Assembly: GCA_964455485.1 (NCBI GenBank)
Contig: CAYVXT010000034.1
Location: 1-54,159 of the forward strand
Direction of reading: 5' to 3'
Source: an uncultured Candidatus Saccharibacteria bacterium
Lineage (GTDB): Bacteria; Patescibacteriota; Minisyncoccia; Phycocordibacterales; WO2-35-19
Length of the DNA: 54,159 nucleotides
Both the position numbers and the translations under genes were made by a program. How positions within the stretch are numbered: position 1 is the stretch's first letter; every line of letters starts with the position of its first letter. Of the stretch, positions 9,488 to 33,691 are shown in pieces. A model generated the notes under the pieces. That model ran no database searches, had not been told where the DNA came from, and saw nothing but the letters and a program-made list of their open reading frames with translations.

Positions 9488-11296
9488 ATGAAAAAATTTG
9501 TTATAGCTCTTGGTATATTATTTGTTTCTCCAGTATTTGTTTTTGCAACAACATCTGAATCAGTTAGTGTTGCCGAGCTTAAAGCTCAAATATCAAGTCT
9601 TTTAAAACTAGTGCAAGAGTTACAATCACAAATTGCATCTCAAAACTTAAGTGGTGGATCCTCAGGAGGTGTTTCGTGCCATACATTCAATAGAGATTTG
9701 GGAATAGGGGACAATGGCGACGAAGCGTCTTTTTTATTGACGGCTCTAGCACGAGACGGCGTTGCCACTCCTAGAAATACTAACTTTAGTCATATTTACG
9801 ACGAAACACTTGCTTCTTATGTAAGTGCCTTCCAAGAAAAATATAAGAGTGAAATTTTGACTCCAGCAGGATTATCTAACGGTACAGGATATTTTGGAGC
9901 TCGCACCAGAGCAAAATTGAACCAACTTTATGGATGCGGAAATTCTACACGATGTACAGATGTAACTGGAACCACCTGCACTTATACCGAAAATCCAAAT
10001 TGGTATCAACAAAGAGATGCGACAACCTGTCCTATAATTTCTCCTATGTCACCGAATTCTTGTATTGGTGGCACCATCATTACCACGGTTGGCGCCAATG
10101 GTTGTCTCGGATTGCCTAAGTGTGTAATGCCAACATCAACACAAACCACAGTTGCATGCACCATGGAAGCCAAAATATGTCCTGATGGTAAAACAGTTGT
10201 TAGTCGCACAGGGCCAAACTGCGAATTTACTGCATGCCCTACACAAATAACATCAAAAGTTACAATTTCTTCTCCGAACGGTGGGGAACAGTGGCAAAAT
10301 AGTTCAACTCAAACTATTAAATGGTCTGATCCGGCTGGATCTAATAATGGAACCTATACTGTATTTATAACAAGTGAGAATGGTAGCGCTTATGGAATAG
10401 CAGGGGAAGTATATGGTCAAAATTATCTAAACTGGACAGTTGGGCAGGTAAAACTAGGAGACCAACAGATCAATTTAAGTCCTAGTTCAAATTATTACGT
10501 TCAGGTTGTAAAACAATATACTGGTACAAACATCTACGATCAAAGCGACAGACCGTTCAGTATTGTTTCTACGTCACCATCTATAAGTGTTACTTCACCA
10601 AATGGGGGAGAGACTTATACAACAAATCTCTCAACTATTCGTATAAATTACAAATCAGCTAGTATTGTCGGCCAAACACTAACAGCATACCTCTATAGCC
10701 CAATCTGGAATAATGTACAGTCCCAAACAGTGTATGCCGATAATTTTGGTTATATTGACATGAATTTAACCAAAGCTGGTGGTCCAAATGCTGGACAGTA
10801 TAAAATAACTCTCTGTGCTAACAATGTTTCTAGTCCAGAAGTTTCTGGCAAACCTCTTTGCGACTCTAGCGACAATTACTTCAACATCATTTCTCAACAA
10901 ACAAACGGCACACTATCATTTTCGAAATCATCATTTTCAGCAACCTATACTCAAGGAGATGCACTTCCAGACAGTATAACTGGTTCTACAAATGTTTATA
11001 CTTCCACTCAATATCTTCAGAGCCTAGATATTACCAACACATCAAATGTAAATGTTATTTTTAAAATTAGCGTTCCCAATAAACCATCATGGCTTAATAC
11101 TAGCTATGCAACAGATTCATTGACGGTAGGTCCTGGACAAATTATGGGTCTAGGTGCATATCTTGACCCTACTACTGTAGCTAATACTCCTGGCACCTAT
11201 ACAACAAATATAATTCTTACTGGCAACTTTATGGGTTCACCCCTTTCAATTCCAGTAACATTAAAGGTGGTTTCGTCCAATACCAAGTCTTACTAG
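9488..11296 (+). CDS. secreted protein with a putative peptidoglycan-binding domain, a Cys-rich segment and Ig-like repeats
   Basis: Signal peptide and a coiled-coil. The block GDNGDEASFLLTALARDGV...ASYVSAFQEKY...GYFGARTRAKLNQLYG resembles PG_binding_1. Repeated SSPNGGEQW / TSPNGGETY module starts. Confidence 0.55.
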   Translation: MKKFVIALGILFVSPVFVFATTSESVSVAELKAQISSLLKLVQELQSQIASQNLSGGSSGGVSCHTFNRDLGIGDNGDEASFLLTALARDGVATPRNTNFSHIYDETLASYVSAFQEKYKSEILTPAGLSNGTGYFGARTRAKLNQLYGCGNSTRCTDVTGTTCTYTENPNWYQQRDATTCPIISPMSPNSCIGGTIITTVGANGCLGLPKCVMPTSTQTTVACTMEAKICPDGKTVVSRTGPNCEFTACPTQITSKVTISSPNGGEQWQNSSTQTIKWSDPAGSNNGTYTVFITSENGSAYGIAGEVYGQNYLNWTVGQVKLGDQQINLSPSSNYYVQVVKQYTGTNIYDQSDRPFSIVSTSPSISVTSPNGGETYTTNLSTIRINYKSASIVGQTLTAYLYSPIWNNVQSQTVYADNFGYIDMNLTKAGGPNAGQYKITLCANNVSSPEVSGKPLCDSSDNYFNIISQQTNGTLSFSKSSFSATYTQGDALPDSITGSTNVYTSTQYLQSLDITNTSNVNVIFKISVPNKPSWLNTSYATDSLTVGPGQIMGLGAYLDPTTVANTPGTYTTNIILTGNFMGSPLSIPVTLKVVSSNTKSY

Positions 11297-19194: not shown

Positions 19195-19692
19195 TTATGA
19201 AGGGATTTTTGTGGATAAGATGGCTGAGCAGGCTATAGCTGAGGCTATAGCATCGTACTCATCATCCAACCTTTTTTGTTTTTTGAGCTTCACTAACATT
19301 TCTACCATCCTTATAACTTGTTTTTTGTCGCTTTTACCATAACCAGTCACCGCTACTTTTATTTGGTTTGGATTTAATTCTAAAACCCTTAATCCGTTTT
19401 TGGAGGCGACAAAACTAATAACACCTCTTGCTTCCGCTACTTGCATAGCGGTTTTTTGATTTCTACTAAAAAGAAGAGTTTCAAGGGATAGGATTTCAGG
19501 ATTGAATTTATCAATAATATATTCTATTTGTTTTCCAAGCTCGGCAAGTCTTGATGTGTGGGGTAGTTTTGGATTTGTTTCAAAACATTCAGAATGTAAA
19601 ATGGTGGGTTTGCTATTCTCAATTTTAATAACAGCGATACCTATGCGCCCATATCCAGGATCGATTCCTAAAATTATTGGATTATGATTCAT
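19195..19692 (-). CDS. ruvC: crossover junction endodeoxyribonuclease RuvC
   Basis: ILGIDPGYGRIGIAVI N-terminus, ~165 aa, next to yebC and ruvB. Confidence 0.9.
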   Translation of the reverse strand: MNHNPIILGIDPGYGRIGIAVIKIENSKPTILHSECFETNPKLPHTSRLAELGKQIEYIIDKFNPEILSLETLLFSRNQKTAMQVAEARGVISFVASKNGLRVLELNPNQIKVAVTGYGKSDKKQVIRMVEMLVKLKKQKRLDDEYDAIASAIACSAILSTKIPS

Positions 19693-19699
19693 GATTTAT

Positions 19700-20233
19700 C
19701 TACTCTGCATTTGTATATACTTCTTGGACCTCATCATTTTCTTCTAGTTCGTCTATTATTTTTGAAAGTTGTTCTCCTTGTGATTCCGAAATTTGAACTG
19801 TGGTTTTAGGTAACCATTCACCACCTGGGTTTTTTTGAAATGCCCACACTGCAGATCCTGGGGTGGCAAGCTCAAAACCATTTTTTGTAAGTATATGTTT
19901 TATTTCCTGGGCCGCCTTATTTCTGTTGTTAGTAAGTGCTTGTATTATAATAGCCGAACCTCCCGGGCCATATGCCTCATATGTTATTTGTTCCTCACTT
20001 TCACCCTCTCCTCCGGCGCCTTTTTTGATTGCTCTTTCAATGTTGTCTCCTGGTACGTTTGCTTCTTTTGCTTTTTCTATTGCTGTACGTAAACCAGGTG
20101 AATTTGTGTCGCCTTTTGCTAGCTTGGACTCAACCGCAATAGCTCGTACAAGCTTTCCAAAAATTTTGCTTTTTTGGGCATCTGTTACGGCCTTCTTGTT
20201 TTTAATTTTTGACCATTTATTATGTCCTGACAT
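19700..20233 (-). CDS. yebC: YebC/PmpR-family protein (short form)
   Basis: MSGHNKWSKIKNKKAVTDAQKSKIFGKLVRAI is the canonical YebC N-terminus. At 177 aa it is shorter than the usual ~240 aa. Confidence 0.85.
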   Translation of the reverse strand: MSGHNKWSKIKNKKAVTDAQKSKIFGKLVRAIAVESKLAKGDTNSPGLRTAIEKAKEANVPGDNIERAIKKGAGGEGESEEQITYEAYGPGGSAIIIQALTNNRNKAAQEIKHILTKNGFELATPGSAVWAFQKNPGGEWLPKTTVQISESQGEQLSKIIDELEENDEVQEVYTNAE

Positions 20234-20280: not shown

Positions 20281-21342
20281 TTACAAAAGCTTTTCCTGAA
20301 TATTTTCAGGGTAGGGAAGTCCAATGTGGTTGTACGCAAGCTTCGTTAAAACCCTTCCACGAGATGTTCTTTCTATAAACCCGATTTGAAGGAGGTATGG
20401 CTCATGAAATTCTTCGATGGTTGACTCTTCTTCTGAAAGGGAAGCCGCTATGGTGTTTAGGCCAACTGGTCCACCTCTAAATTTTTCGGCAATACATGCC
20501 AACAATATTCGATCTGAATTGTTCAATCCAATATGGTCTATTCCTAAAAGATCAAAGGCTGATTCAACAATCTTCTCATCGATATTTTTCTTCTCAACCT
20601 GAGCATAATCTCTAGCCCGTTTTAATAAGTAGTTTGCTGTCCTGGGAGTAGCTCTACTCCTTTTTGCAATTGATGAAGCGGTGACCTTGTCTACAGGCAT
20701 CCCTAATATTTCTGCAGAACGCATTATTATTTTCTCTATTTCTGATTGTTGATAAAACTCAAGCCTAAACACTCCACCTGAAAAACGACTTCTTAGTGGG
20801 GAGGAAATATTTGCAAGTTTTGTTGTTGCACCAATTAATGTAAAAGGTGGCAGCTCAAGTTGTATGGTTCGAGCACTAGGACCTTTACCTATTATTATAT
20901 CAAGTACCCCTGATTCCATAGCTGGATAAAGAACCTCCTCTATTGATTTATTTAGCCTGTGTATTTCATCTATAAAAAGAATGTCTCCTGAAGAAAGATT
21001 TGTAAGTATTGAAGCAAGGTCGCCCACTTTTTCAATTGCTGGCCCGGAGGTTGACCTCATCTGGCTACCGGTCTCTTTAGCTATAAGATGGGCTAAAGTG
21101 GTTTTACCGAGCCCTGGAGGGCCATAAAATAGTAGGTGCTCTGGAGGATGAGATCTTTCTTTAGCCGCTGAGAGTAATATTTTTAAGTTTTTCTTAATAT
21201 TTTCTTGCCCAATATATTCTTCCCAAGAAGCTGGACGTAAAGTTTGGTCTAGAAAATCAAAATCTCGCTTTAGTTCCTGGTTATCTTCATTGTTATTTAA
21301 CTTTGTTGACATGGTATTTGGGATTGCCTTATAATTAGGCAT
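20281..21342 (-). CDS. ruvB: Holliday junction branch migration ATPase RuvB
   Basis: Walker A GPPGLGKTTLA, DEIHRL, and a C-terminal winged helix. The true start may be the internal Met (MSTKLNN). Confidence 0.95.
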   Translation of the reverse strand: MPNYKAIPNTMSTKLNNNEDNQELKRDFDFLDQTLRPASWEEYIGQENIKKNLKILLSAAKERSHPPEHLLFYGPPGLGKTTLAHLIAKETGSQMRSTSGPAIEKVGDLASILTNLSSGDILFIDEIHRLNKSIEEVLYPAMESGVLDIIIGKGPSARTIQLELPPFTLIGATTKLANISSPLRSRFSGGVFRLEFYQQSEIEKIIMRSAEILGMPVDKVTASSIAKRSRATPRTANYLLKRARDYAQVEKKNIDEKIVESAFDLLGIDHIGLNNSDRILLACIAEKFRGGPVGLNTIAASLSEEESTIEEFHEPYLLQIGFIERTSRGRVLTKLAYNHIGLPYPENIQEKLL

Positions 21343-21376
21343 GTTGATTATACCAATCCGAGCGCAGTATTAGGGG

Positions 21377-21405
21377 TTGACATATTTTTTGGTATATGCT
21401 ATACT
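21377..21405 (+). promoter_or_regulatory. consensus sigma-70-type promoter (TTGACA-17 nt-TATACT)
   Basis: ttgaca at 21377-21382, a 17-nt spacer, and tatact at 21400-21405. It points away from ruvB into a non-coding gap. Confidence 0.65.
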
Positions 21406-21411
21406 TCCAGT

Positions 21412-21625
21412 GAAATTGAAAGTTTTATTTGGAGGTACAAATCTCTAAGCGGCGGTTCGCCTAGAGCGAATTTTGACATTAAATCAAGGAATTGCCGGTA
21501 CCACTTTCGAGAGGCCAGCTAGCTTTCTCCTCAGAATAATGTTTTGCTTTCGGTATTATTATTGAAAGTGCCGCTTAGAGATTTGTGTCCCCAAAAAATG
21601 AACGTACCCTTTTAGGGTATTTTTC
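21412..21625 (+). ncRNA. unclassified structured RNA (~215 nt) with its own promoter and terminator
   Basis: A perfect 17-bp closing helix: acaaatctctaagcggc (21437-21453) pairs with gccgcttagagatttgt (21570-21586) and can be extended by G-C/G-U pairs. Internal hairpins include ttcgc-ctaga-gcgaa and aataat...attatt. The terminator taccct-ttt-agggta+TTTTT lies at 21605-21625. No ORF is present and both flanking genes are on the other strand. Confidence 0.55.
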
Positions 21626-21685
21626 ATTATTCATAAATTGTGGCACCAAGCAATTTATTTTGTGTATAACTTTTGTTTAAAAATT

Positions 21686-23365
21686 TTAAGTCTCAATATC
21701 AATTACTCTCCCTAATTCATCAATAGATGTTATACCTCCCAAAATCTTCAAAACTCCATCTTGAAGCATTGTTAGTATGCCTTGGTTTTGAGCAGCGCTA
21801 CTAATCTCTCTTTCGCTTGGATTGTTTATTACTACTTCTTCGATTTTTTCATCTATCAAAACAGCTTCATATATACCAGTTCTACCTTTATATCCTGTAA
21901 AATTACATTTCTCACATCCTACAGGTCCATAAACATTTTTTACATCAGCTTCTTTAATGAGTGTTTTGTCTTGAATGCTAGATAAAACTTTATTAATAAT
22001 TTCCTTATCCTTTTCAGGCACATCAATAATTTTTTTGCAGTTTTGGCATAATTTACGCACCAATCTTTGTGCCATTGCTATATTTATAGCTGAAGTAATA
22101 ACTTTAGGGTTTATACCCAAGTCAATTAGGCGTGGGAAAGTCCCGGCAGCATTATTTGTGTGTAATGTTGAGAAAACTAAGTGACCCGTAAGAGCTGAAT
22201 TTATTGCAATCTCAGCTGTTTCGTCATCTCTAATTTCGCCCACCATTATAATGTCAGGATCTTGACGTAGGGCGCTGCGCAAACCTTCTGCAAAAGTATA
22301 ACCCTTCTCCTCATCAGTTTGTGTTTGCACTATGCCCTTAAGGTGATATTCGATCGGATTTTCAATCGTAATTATTTTAACTTCAGGAGTGTGCATTTTT
22401 TTTAGGAACGCATAGAGGGTGGTGCTTTTACCTGAACCTGTTGGTCCAGTGTTCAATATCATTCCGTTTGGTTTTTTTAATTCTTTTTCAATTATACTAA
22501 GCAGCTTTTGGTTTATACCAAGATCTTCAAAAGAAACACCAATAGCGTTTGGGTTCAATACTCTAAGTACTACGGATTCTCCGTATCCTCCAGGTAAGAG
22601 GGAAGTACGTATTTCTATCTCGATATCGCCGAGTTTAATGCTAAATCTTCCATCCTGAGCCTTCTCACGCACATTTAGTTTTAAGTTTGAAATAAGTTTG
22701 ATTCTTGATAGTAGTAAGTTGTAAATGTTTGGTTCAATCTCTAAAATATCATTTAAAACCCCATCCATTCGATATCTTAATCTTACCGAATTGTCCTCAG
22801 GTTCTATATGGATATCAGAAGCTCCTACTGAAATAGCTCCAGCCAATATAATTTCTAAAATACGTGTTATTCGGTAACTCTTTTTTTCTTTTATAACTAA
22901 TTCAATTGAATTTTTTATGTCTTGAACTGTTTTAACATCCTTAACTAAATTTTGAATTTCATCGTTCGATATATCAAGTGAACCTCCTTTTGTTTCCATT
23001 GAATAAGAAAGGTCTTTGTATCTATCCCATATTTTTTGAAGGCTTTGATGAGAAGCCATAAAAATCTCAACCAAATAACCACGCGACTTCAAGTTTTCAA
23101 TAACCTCAGTCGTTTTGCTTGTGTTCGGTGAAATGATGGCTAAATAAACACGCTTGTTAACTATATTAAAAGGGGCAACCTCAGCCTCACGTGCCACGTC
23201 TTCTTTTACAACACGCAAAGCATCGATGTTTACTGGATTAACATCAAGATCAATGTAAGAGATCCCATATTTTTGGGCCATTAGTTTGGCAAGCCCCTCT
23301 TCTTCCTCTTCTCTCAAATCACCAAGTTTTTGACGTTGTTTACCTTCATTAAATTCAATTACCAT
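21686..23365 (-). CDS. pilB: type IV pilus / type II secretion assembly ATPase (PilB/GspE family)
   Basis: Walker A GPTGSGKSTTL, Asp box, Walker B IIMVGEIRD, His box LVFSTLHTN, and the tetracysteine motif CQNC...CEKC. Confidence 0.9.
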   Translation of the reverse strand: MVIEFNEGKQRQKLGDLREEEEEGLAKLMAQKYGISYIDLDVNPVNIDALRVVKEDVAREAEVAPFNIVNKRVYLAIISPNTSKTTEVIENLKSRGYLVEIFMASHQSLQKIWDRYKDLSYSMETKGGSLDISNDEIQNLVKDVKTVQDIKNSIELVIKEKKSYRITRILEIILAGAISVGASDIHIEPEDNSVRLRYRMDGVLNDILEIEPNIYNLLLSRIKLISNLKLNVREKAQDGRFSIKLGDIEIEIRTSLLPGGYGESVVLRVLNPNAIGVSFEDLGINQKLLSIIEKELKKPNGMILNTGPTGSGKSTTLYAFLKKMHTPEVKIITIENPIEYHLKGIVQTQTDEEKGYTFAEGLRSALRQDPDIIMVGEIRDDETAEIAINSALTGHLVFSTLHTNNAAGTFPRLIDLGINPKVITSAINIAMAQRLVRKLCQNCKKIIDVPEKDKEIINKVLSSIQDKTLIKEADVKNVYGPVGCEKCNFTGYKGRTGIYEAVLIDEKIEEVVINNPSEREISSAAQNQGILTMLQDGVLKILGGITSIDELGRVIDIET

Positions 23366-31732: not shown

Positions 31733-33138
31733 TTACTCAATAATTTTTGCAACTCTTCTCTTGCAACTCTTGCATCGTCCCATTCTTCTTTAGTTCCATT
31801 TGGCCCCATGATGTAAGGGTCAGTGCCTTTACCTGTGATTAAAACCGCAATTTTTTCATCAGCCGACTTCGAATGAGTTAATTCTTTGGCTTTGCTAATA
31901 GCGAATCGAATAGCCTCTCTTCGGTTGATTATTATGTCGAGTGGTTTTTTGGTGACCCCCCTTTTCATTTCATTTATTATTTCCATTGGGTCTTCGTCGT
32001 ATGGGTCTTCATTAGTTAGGATTATGTGGTCGCAATTTTGATCTGCCACTTCTGCCATCACTTTTCTTTTCCATTTATCTCTACCACCACCAGTATTACC
32101 AAGTACGCATATTTTTGTATGGTTTTTGTAAGCACCGTAAATGGCTTCCAAAGATTCTTTTGTGTGGGCATAGTCAACTACTACATCAAATTCAGGTATT
32201 GTAGAGTTGTCTACCAAAATTTTTTCCATTCTGCCCCGCACCTTATCCATTTTTTCTAAGCCTATTTTTGCTTGTTCTGTACTGATGCCAAAAAATTCAG
32301 CACATTTTATTGCTCCGATCATATTGGAAACATTAAACATACCAGGAAGTTTTGAATGGATAACAGTTTTTTTAATTTGGAAAGTTGAACCAGTCGAATC
32401 TGATTTTATTGAAACCGCGTCGTTCAATGAATATTTTATTTTATTTGGAATGTTGAGTGCAAGAAATTTTTCTGACTCTTTATCGTCAATGTTTGCAATT
32501 ATTGCAGGGGTTAAAAGGGAAGTTCTTGAAAAAATGTCTGGCCTCGCTTGGACTTGAGAGACTACAAGGCCAGGACGGGGAGATCCGAGGACTTTTTGAA
32601 AGAATTTCACTTTTAACCTTATTAATTCCTCGGCGATAGAAAGTTTTGCTTTTACATACTTTTCATAAGATCCGTGCGACTCTATGTGTTCAGGAGAGAG
32701 GTTTGTAAAAATGAGAGCGTCTGGATAAACAAACTTGTGTCTAAATTGTTTTGATCCCTCTGAACTCATTTCTAAAATAGCTACATCGCAACCAGAATTT
32801 ATTGAGTCTCTTAGAAATTGCTGTATGAAAAACCTACCAGGCATTGTCATTTTAAACTTATTGCTCCTTTCCTTATCAGCAATTTTAAATCTGATAGTAT
32901 TTTGTACGGCTGTTTTATATCCTGCTGCTTCAAAAATAGCGTTTACCATTTCTGTTGTCGTGCTTTTGCCTTTAGTGCCAGTTACACCTATTACTAGTAT
33001 TTTTTTTCCAGGAAACTTGTAAATAATTGCACCCACAAATGCAAGCAAGTAATGATAAATAGGCTGGGCAGCCTTAAATATTTTTTTTGGTATTATTTTT
33101 CTTCCAATTTTTAGTATTTTTTCCATTCTATTTTCCAA
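31723..33138 (-). CDS. Mur ligase family protein (MurE-like UDP-MurNAc-tripeptide synthetase)
   Basis: GVTGTKGKSTT P-loop, the middle-domain motif, and VDYAHT. The C-terminal domain (TNEDPYDEDP) is typical of MurE-type enzymes. Substrate not determinable by eye. Confidence 0.75.
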   Translation of the reverse strand: MENRMEKILKIGRKIIPKKIFKAAQPIYHYLLAFVGAIIYKFPGKKILVIGVTGTKGKSTTTEMVNAIFEAAGYKTAVQNTIRFKIADKERSNKFKMTMPGRFFIQQFLRDSINSGCDVAILEMSSEGSKQFRHKFVYPDALIFTNLSPEHIESHGSYEKYVKAKLSIAEELIRLKVKFFQKVLGSPRPGLVVSQVQARPDIFSRTSLLTPAIIANIDDKESEKFLALNIPNKIKYSLNDAVSIKSDSTGSTFQIKKTVIHSKLPGMFNVSNMIGAIKCAEFFGISTEQAKIGLEKMDKVRGRMEKILVDNSTIPEFDVVVDYAHTKESLEAIYGAYKNHTKICVLGNTGGGRDKWKRKVMAEVADQNCDHIILTNEDPYDEDPMEIINEMKRGVTKKPLDIIINRREAIRFAISKAKELTHSKSADEKIAVLITGKGTDPYIMGPNGTKEEWDDARVAREELQKLLSNSE

Positions 33139-33691
33139 AGTGCTTTAATGCGTGTTTTATTTTTTCGTTAGTACCTGAAATTTCTTTTGGCATACTTTTT
33201 ATAACTTCTTGAATATCACGGTCCCTATATCCAAGAGATTTTAATGCTTCAAATACATCTACATCTTCTACTGAACCACCTTTTTCACTTCTTGAAATTA
33301 ATTTACCATTCAACTCAAGTACTATTTTTTCGGCAGTTTTTCGACCGATACCAGATATTTTAGTTAGGGAAGAGGTGTCCCCGGTTGCTACCGCTTGTTC
33401 AATAGACGAAACCCCGGCAACACCCAATATTGCTAAGGCTGACTTTGGACCTACACCCGAAACGGTAAGAAGAAGCTCAAAAACTTTTAGTTCGTCCTCA
33501 GTTTCAAAACCATATAGATCTATTGAATTTTCTCGAACTGCCGTATGGGTCCAAAAACTAACTTCTGCTCCCAACCTCAACCTCTCAATATATGAAATTG
33601 TAGAGTTTATAACAAAACCTAAACCGTGTAGGTCAACAATCGCCCTTGTTGGCTTTATGTCTATTAAAGTGCCTTTTATATAGCCAAACAT
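33128..33691 (-). CDS. ruvA: Holliday junction DNA helicase subunit RuvA
   Basis: MFGYIKGTL start and HhH motifs (LLTVSGVGPKSALAIL, ISGIGRKTAEKIV). Overlaps the Mur ligase start by 11 nt. Confidence 0.9.
   Translation of the reverse strand: MFGYIKGTLIDIKPTRAIVDLHGLGFVINSTISYIERLRLGAEVSFWTHTAVRENSIDLYGFETEDELKVFELLLTVSGVGPKSALAILGVAGVSSIEQAVATGDTSSLTKISGIGRKTAEKIVLELNGKLISRSEKGGSVEDVDVFEALKSLGYRDRDIQEVIKSMPKEISGTNEKIKHALKHFGK

Follow-up and report, generated by a model that had tools for sequence, protein, structure and literature searches.

Introduction

Bacterial RNAs whose ends pair into a long closing stem, antisense RNAs encoded opposite the leader of their target and orphan RNAs recognized in one bacterial lineage are the described systems closest to the element treated in this article, a structured RNA gene located between ruvB and pilB in the genome of an uncultured bacterium. 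The DNA analyzed is a stretch of 54,159 nucleotides (nt), referred to below as the window (contig CAYVXT010000034.1, assembly GCA_964455485.1), deposited under the name of an uncultured Candidatus Saccharibacteria bacterium and placed by GTDB in Patescibacteriota; Minisyncoccia; Phycocordibacterales; WO2-35-19. The RNA shares with 6S RNA (SsrS, RF00013) its single copy, a strong promoter of its own, a length in the range of ~150-200 nt, a long closing stem made by pairing of its 5' and 3' ends, a long arm at the distal side, and a lineage-wide occurrence. It differs in that 6S RNA opens into a large single-stranded central bubble, whereas two covarying hairpins and a tight junction are found here, and in that its conserved positions lie within helices. 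With the Y RNAs and YrlA it has in common a long end-formed stem bearing a branched, cloverleaf-like module; however, the models of those families do not match, and tRNA-like loop signatures are lacking.

Among antisense regulators, the RNA would be comparable to structured cis-encoded RNAs such as ColE1 RNA I and CopA of plasmid R1 and to antisense RNAs overlapping chromosomal 5' leaders, in being encoded opposite the leader of its target. It resembles them further in having several stem-loops whose stems are kept while the loop sequences drift, in a strong constitutive promoter that would face a weaker target promoter, and in the availability of RNase III. The differences are that the present RNA is chromosomal and order-wide (more than 100 families), far deeper than the structured antisense RNAs described so far, that its hairpins do not stand in a row but radiate from a four-way junction, which a 22-bp helix closes, that it contains invariant helical segments, and that regulation is in this case a proposal. 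As with raiA and OLE, it was recognized through conservation and covariation in one bacterial lineage; it departs from both in fold and sequence, in having no Rfam family and in a locus fixed between ruvB and pilB. No description of it was found in the literature searched, and on the comparisons reported below it is a new, uncatalogued RNA family of the structured small or antisense kind.

Fold and Covariation of the RNA

The conserved core of the RNA comprises 168 nt of the plus strand (21428-21595) and is predicted, from covariance-model matches and covariation, to fold into a closed four-way junction. Of the two covariance models used, R1 matches the core with 174.5 bits on the plus strand and 60.7 bits on the minus strand, and R2 with 157.1 bits. 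The junction is closed by P1, in which 21430-21453 pairs with 21570-21593 through 22 base pairs. A first reading of the sequence (the preliminary description) had reported a perfect 17-bp closing helix, and the segment 21437-21453 (ACAAATCTCTAAGCGGC) is indeed the exact reverse complement of 21570-21586, the helix extending beyond it to the 22 pairs. The hairpin P2 (21454-21472) has seven pairs, all of which covary, with changes on both sides at every one. The long arm P3 (21475-21543, 21 pairs) consists of a basal stem (21475-21481 with 21537-21543), an internal loop, a conserved AGGA/UCCU helix together with a (C/U)GG/CU(A/G)G motif containing tandem wobble pairs (21487-21499 with 21518-21531), and a variable tip. 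P4 (21546-21569) forms nine pairs, 97.9% of them paired in the alignment, on a nearly invariant GCUUU/AAAGU base. The linkers between the arms measure 0-2 nt in the window and 0-4 alignment columns across the order. The predicted transcript (21412-21625) has a minimum free energy of -76.7 kcal/mol, compared with -47.7 ± 4.4 for 200 shuffled sequences, none of which is as stable (z = -6.5).

Covariation was evaluated at the order level in 43 sequences drawn from many families, over 59 pairs. Standard pairs fill 94.9% of the cells, vs 79.2% with the letters of the 3' side in shuffled order and 40-48% with the partners displaced by 1-3 columns, and both sides have changed in 38 of the 59 pairs; within the family, compensatory changes are already found in 29. 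The covariation in relatives on which the preliminary description had made its proposal depend is thus strong. G-U or U-G combinations occupy 362 cells and A-C or C-A combinations 42. This excess, the difference between the two strands in the R1 score and the presence of a plus-strand promoter assign the RNA to the plus strand, and the fold, the covariation and the conservation of the promoter together bear out the orphan structured RNA gene, with promoter and terminator of its own, that had been suggested there. On this comparative evidence the locus holds a genuine structured RNA gene on the plus strand.

The pattern of conservation within the RNA is uneven. Little conservation is seen in the hairpin loops and at unpaired positions, and several helical segments are nearly invariant across the order, namely CUCUAAGC in the 5' strand of P1 and GCUUAGAG in its 3' strand, AGGA(C)/(A)UCCU and the (C/U)GG/CU(A/G)G motif in P3, and CUUU/AAAG at the base of P4. 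The arm that persists best in the most distant matches is P3.

The same strand had been said to contain no open reading frame (ORF) longer than eight codons, which is correct for ATG starts; with TTG or GTG starts, plus-strand ORFs of 30 and 31 codons occur at 21473-21565 and 21585-21680. They are not read as coding, since indels among the homologues are not multiples of three and the substitutions compensate for one another in RNA pairing.

Promoter, Leader and Terminator

The RNA is preceded by a near-consensus sigma-70 promoter (21377-21405, plus strand), with TTGACA at 21377-21382, a 17-nt spacer carrying an extended -10 TG, and TATACT at 21400-21405. The family consensus to which it is the ortholog reads TTGACATATTTTAT...TATGATATACT; a strong plus-strand promoter is found at 93 of 106 loci, and the extended -10 TG in 92 of those 93. 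The predicted start, about 7 nt after the -10, gives a 5' leader (21412-21427) that holds GAAATTGAAA, a word recurring in relatives; the length of the leader varies between species around a median of ~50 nt. In this species the core is followed by an intrinsic terminator (21604-21624, plus strand) made of a 7-bp hairpin (21604-21620) and TTTTT, so that both elements previously reported at this place, TTGACA-17-TATACT and the hairpin with its T-run, stand at exactly the coordinates given for them. The predicted ends of the RNA correspond to a transcript of ~170-210 nt.

A second promoter-like site, TTGACA-18-TATAAT, with 12 of 12 consensus matches, is present on the plus strand at 21306-21335, inside the first ruvB codons and 71 bp upstream of the orthologous promoter of the RNA. 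The reverse complement of its TTGACAT contains an in-frame ruvB ATG (21312-21310), and the peptide that begins there, MSTKLNNNED..., aligns with the start of the relatives' protein, MSRNNK.... This genome seems to have gained ~65-71 bp that part the ruvB start from the -35 of the RNA.

The terminator hairpin (21619-21605) is also terminator-like on the minus strand, where it is again followed by a T-run, and lies just where the ruvB leader discussed below is predicted to begin; it could attenuate the ruvB leader transcript in this species.

Distribution and Genomic Context

By BLAST, the RNA was detected in 31 of the 39 genomes of the family and in 17 of its 18 genera, with 69-88% identity. 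A covariance model built from 27 of the family's sequences was then applied to the order, where full-length matches came from 234 of the 401 genomes, representing 143 of 224 genera and including Candidatus Zambryskibacteria, Taylorbacteria and other Paceibacterota of the Parcubacteria group (ultra-small Parcubacteria). Nearly everywhere there is one locus per genome, with the exception of G087, which has two adjacent copies at that locus; the 831-kb genome of the window has a single copy, and no copy was found in viral contigs. In a phylum-wide sample the RNA is essentially confined to this order, the model matching 6 of 7 genomes of the order and 1 of 16 from other orders of the class, the latter again between pilB and ruvB. 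A strict search for the P3 motif in the phylum returned one match in 401 genomes, the pattern being too strict to be informative.

Three matches were obtained outside the class. One (L081) lies inside a long ORF and was read as false. A second (L073, G731:C42:1576-1744; 154 bits) comes from a genome assigned to a different family of the phylum, whose pilB and ruvB are 77-78% identical to those of the window; that genome is probably misplaced or a contaminated bin. The third (L079 / L203, G456:C1:215283-215428, minus strand) belongs to a complete genome of another class and is located away from ruvB, with a VanW-like gene on one side and an IS110-family transposase on the other. This relative lacks P4 and has only a small P2, but P1 and the conserved P3 arm are present, and it has its own promoter, TTGACA / TGATATATT, P1 doubling as terminator. 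BLAST searches with this copy found no match in the other five of the six genomes of its order, so that horizontal transfer is possible.

In the window the ruvB start (21342) and the pilB stop (21686) delimit a gap of 343 bp. The two flanking genes, both minus-strand, were confirmed by Pfam: ruvB at 20281-21342, and pilB, encoding the ATPase of type IV pili (T2SSE), at 21686-23365. On the same strand ruvB is followed by yebC (19700-20233) and ruvC (19195-19692). The order ruvB (minus), RNA (plus), pilB (minus) was observed at 52 loci of the family and the order and at 68 of the 69 further loci not cut by a contig end, within a block tyrS-ruvC-yebC-ruvB-RNA-pilB-tsaE-polA that is syntenic as a whole. 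As had been pointed out, no plus-strand gene follows the RNA, the next gene being the convergent pilB both in the window and in relatives. RNase III and HU are encoded in the genome, as is RuvA (33128-33691); Hfq is not encoded in it.

Two observations concern the annotation of these loci. The YebC/TACO1-family ORF between ruvB and ruvC codes for only 177 amino acids, its best-scoring stretch corresponding only to positions 2-55 of the 160-position profile of the second/third domain, and may be a shortened form. In addition, many public metagenome-assembled genomes with a Parcubacteria-type ruvB-RNA-pilB locus (L086, L087, L090 and others) are titled 'uncultured Candidatus Saccharibacteria bacterium', a label that looks generic or wrong.

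Comparison with Known RNA Families

The preliminary description named an Rfam covariance search as a check. No Rfam 15 family reached its gathering threshold anywhere in the window; within the gap (21300-21720) nothing credible appeared at E ≤ 10, the best candidate being a Giardia U4 model with 23 bits against a cut-off of 100, and 16 homologous loci gave nothing at E ≤ 0.01. Nor is the RNA that of the signal recognition particle (SRP), transfer-messenger RNA (tmRNA) or RNase P, whose signatures had not been recognized in it at first reading. A reduced RNase P RNA was rejected, the RNase P RNA being encoded at G000:C3:186-553, and so was a tmRNA, for which ARAGORN places the gene on G000 contig C62 at 10219-10635 (complement). 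That tmRNA has a long predicted tag, AKNTVAKIVSPYFTANDFDFAYARA, for which the program prints 'Tag not identified'.

A divergent SRP RNA was considered since the family appears to be without one: the models RF00169 and RF01854 had no match in any of its 39 genomes, in a search that found the controls. The idea was rejected, as these 39 genomes also lack the SRP54-type GTPases Ffh and FtsY, phmmer with Ffh finding nothing in the genome of the window. Loss of the SRP in Parcubacteria has already been published (PMC4508563).

The resemblance to 6S RNA or Y RNA proposed earlier was upheld for the long closing stem and failed for the interior, which is a closed four-way junction with no open bubble and is not matched by the 6S or Y models. 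In particular, RF00013 had no match at E ≤ 10 on 21300-21720 and exceeded its cut-off in none of the 39 family genomes, where the best score, 19.5 bits, belongs to another locus.

A Putative Facing Promoter and the Proposed Control of ruvB

Beyond the 3' end of the RNA, a promoter-like site is directed toward it on the minus strand (21626-21653), with a -35 TTGCTT at 21653-21648, a 16-nt spacer and a -10 AATAAT at 21631-21626; on the plus strand it reads CATTATTCATAAA...GCAAT. It was recognized from family and order alignments and from its enrichment. In the family it corresponds to an invariant word 3' of the RNA, CATTATTCA(C/T)AAAA, followed ~13-16 nt on by GCAAT and a T-run. Among relatives TTGnnn is followed, after 16-17 nt, by AATAAT, TACTAT, TAGTAT, TATACT, TACGAT or GATAAT. 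The spacing is constant and both the spacer sequence and the -10 word differ between lineages, which is the signature of a sigma-70 promoter facing the RNA gene. The genome has no second copy of the full inverted-repeat element (21627-21669) in which the site lies.

The enrichment was measured with the motif TTGnnn-16/17-(AATAAT, TACTAT, TAGTAT or TATACT). In the 200 nt beyond the 3' end of the RNA, the minus strand has it at 93 of 113 loci, compared with 25% of shuffled sequences; the plus strand of the same segment has it at 26 of 116 loci (22%). Elsewhere on the minus strand upstream of ruvB it shows no enrichment, being found at 4 of 113 loci inside the RNA (shuffles 8%) and at 22 of 113 in the 150 nt between the RNA and ruvB (shuffles 18%). 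The CAT of TTGACAT, the -35 word of the RNA, is on the opposite strand an in-frame ATG of ruvB at 53 of 90 loci, so in those genomes no ruvB promoter can lie between ruvB and the promoter of the RNA. The minus-strand site is thus probably the promoter of the ruvB operon, being the only conserved candidate for ruvB-yebC-ruvC.

The downstream words TTATTCACA and TTATACACA were also considered as DnaA boxes. The window contains three TTATNCACA sites, approximately the number expected by chance, and the word is limited to the family and its near relatives (16 of 77 wider loci), TACTAT or TAGTAT occupying the same place elsewhere; a minus-strand -10 is favored because it explains all variants of the word.

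If this promoter assignment is correct, the ruvB-yebC-ruvC messenger probably starts just past the 3' end of the RNA and carries a ~275-nt leader that would be fully complementary to it. The statement that the RNA is neither a leader nor a riboswitch accordingly stands for the plus strand and not for the minus strand of the same DNA, which is probably the 5' leader of ruvB; it is for this reason that the RNA is viewed as a cis-antisense partner of ruvB. The interpretation favored here, tentatively and with a probability of roughly 0.4, is that the RNA regulates ruvB-yebC-ruvC in cis, by antisense pairing or by transcriptional interference. The RNA gene would be situated between two face-to-face promoters that both fire, its own being very strong and that of ruvB weak. 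Its promoter abuts the ruvB start codon, and in most relatives overlaps it. The minus-strand transcript would run on into ruvB, and head-on interference from the strong promoter of the RNA would hold down expression of the operon. The abundant folded antisense RNA may, in addition, pair with the leader, starting at the three hairpin loops, and the resulting duplex would be cut by RNase III. In either case, the output of ruvB would be inverse to the activity of the RNA promoter. That the loops drift while the stems covary would be understandable under such control, because complementarity to the target is automatic and the loops would serve as sites of loop-loop initiation.

The trailer of the RNA was searched for other roles. 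As the seed of a trans target, its conserved word has no convincing complementary site elsewhere in the genome; this speaks against a target in trans and is consistent with control in cis. A pseudoknot between the trailer (CAUUAUUC) and P3 (GAAUAAUG) was rejected, covariation being absent and the trailer constant where P3 changes. In some relatives, for example L009, L032, L119 and L154, the P1 word AUCUCUA appears a third time, between P1 and the minus-strand -10, and this copy could pair with the 3' strand of P1 instead of the 5' strand. As an alternative P1 partner it was not retained, given a modest enrichment only (9 of 117 exact copies vs 2.2% of shuffles).

Several facts weigh against regulation of ruvB in cis. 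The minus-strand site is weak, with 3-4 of 6 consensus positions in its -35 and a 16-nt spacer, and in the window it falls below the threshold of the promoter scan. The RNA does not cover the ribosome-binding region of ruvB itself, and the extra 65-71 bp between its -35 and the ruvB start in the window indicate that the tight overlap is not essential. The relative in G456, in another class, is located away from ruvB. Since the whole gene block is syntenic, the fixed position alone is no proof of a cis function. Finally, conservation over more than 100 families and the near-invariant helical segments point to a protein partner.

Alternative Interpretations

A protein partner is central to the strongest alternative, a distinctly possible one although we hold it with less than even confidence: a housekeeping RNA that binds protein and acts in trans, as a 6S-like global regulator with a closed junction or as the scaffold of an undescribed ribonucleoprotein (RNP). 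Its place opposite the ruvB leader would then be a by-product of genome compaction. The very strong promoter, the single copy and the wide occurrence in the order (234 of 401 genomes, 143 of 224 genera) all agree with such a role, and near-invariant helix sequence in P1, P3 and P4 is what protein or tertiary contacts would be expected to leave. The lineage has no detectable 6S RNA, so that no occupant of the 6S role is identified in it. Synteny extends over the whole region, so adjacency to ruvB need not be functional, and the G456 copy keeps P1-P3 and a consensus promoter of its own in an unrelated context (VanW, IS110 transposase); that copy is, however, isolated, given the lack of BLAST matches in the other five genomes of its order. 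Moreover, the RNA has hardly any conserved unpaired nucleotides, unlike RNase P RNA, SRP RNA, tmRNA and 6S RNA, it fails both the 6S covariance model and the open-bubble architecture, and a purely trans-acting function leaves unexplained that the only conserved candidate for a ruvB promoter lies beyond the RNA gene. A cis-regulatory and a trans-acting function are not mutually exclusive.

Quite unlikely is a further reading, in which the RNA would be the core of an undescribed RNP particular to Paceibacteria. A junction-binding machine (RuvA, RuvB, RuvC or HU) would take its closed four-way junction for a structural mimic, and the RNA would be a decoy or loading scaffold coupling recombination and repair to the transcriptional state, comparable to 6S RNA with RNA polymerase. 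Mimicry of a Holliday junction, the RNA four-way junction serving as a decoy or assembly scaffold for RuvA, RuvB, RuvC or HU in the way that 6S RNA mimics an open promoter, appears quite unlikely. Its appeal comes from the near-perfect junction, with linkers of 0-2 nt (0-4 columns across the order) and four covarying arms, and from a gene that is always beside ruvB-yebC-ruvC in a genome that also encodes RuvA and HU. The adjacency is nevertheless explained by general synteny and nothing in the sequence specifically favors binding. RuvA and RuvC read junctions of B-form DNA, whereas the arms of an RNA junction are A-form, which counts against the mimic.

The functional element might instead be on the minus strand, as a structured 5' leader of ruvB (an attenuator or riboswitch), the plus-strand transcript being incidental. 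The minus strand folds well too (z = -7.1), and the conserved minus-strand promoter would transcribe such a leader ahead of ruvB. This is nonetheless very unlikely: with 362 G-U against 42 A-C cells, many pairs would become mismatches if read from the minus strand, the score of the covariance model is 174.5 bits for the plus strand and 60.7 for the minus, and it is the plus strand that has the terminator and the near-consensus promoter, with its extended -10 in 92 of 93 loci. An element acting as DNA, be it a miniature inverted-repeat transposable element or a distant operator pair formed by the two P1 arms, is hardly credible and close to refuted: the perfect 17-bp inverted repeat around ~115 bp and the helical segments, which are invariant as double-stranded DNA too, would suit it, but a dispersed repeat is rejected by the one copy in the 831-kb genome, relatives likewise have a single copy at the same locus, viral contigs have none, and compensatory changes with many G-U intermediates denote selection on RNA pairing.

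Significance for the Biology of Parcubacteria

The huge, uncultivated lineage of the Parcubacteria (Paceibacteria) has minimal genomes, and these leave little DNA between genes. An RNA maintained in single copy in most sampled genomes of the order, behind a near-consensus promoter and with strong covariation, is almost certainly important to these cells, and it should be of interest to RNA biologists as well as to researchers of the candidate phyla radiation (CPR). If it acts in trans, it would represent a new class of protein-binding RNA. If the reading of two face-to-face promoters is true, the locus would constitute an unusually ancient and elaborate case of antisense control, exerted on the genes for branch migration and resolution of Holliday junctions.

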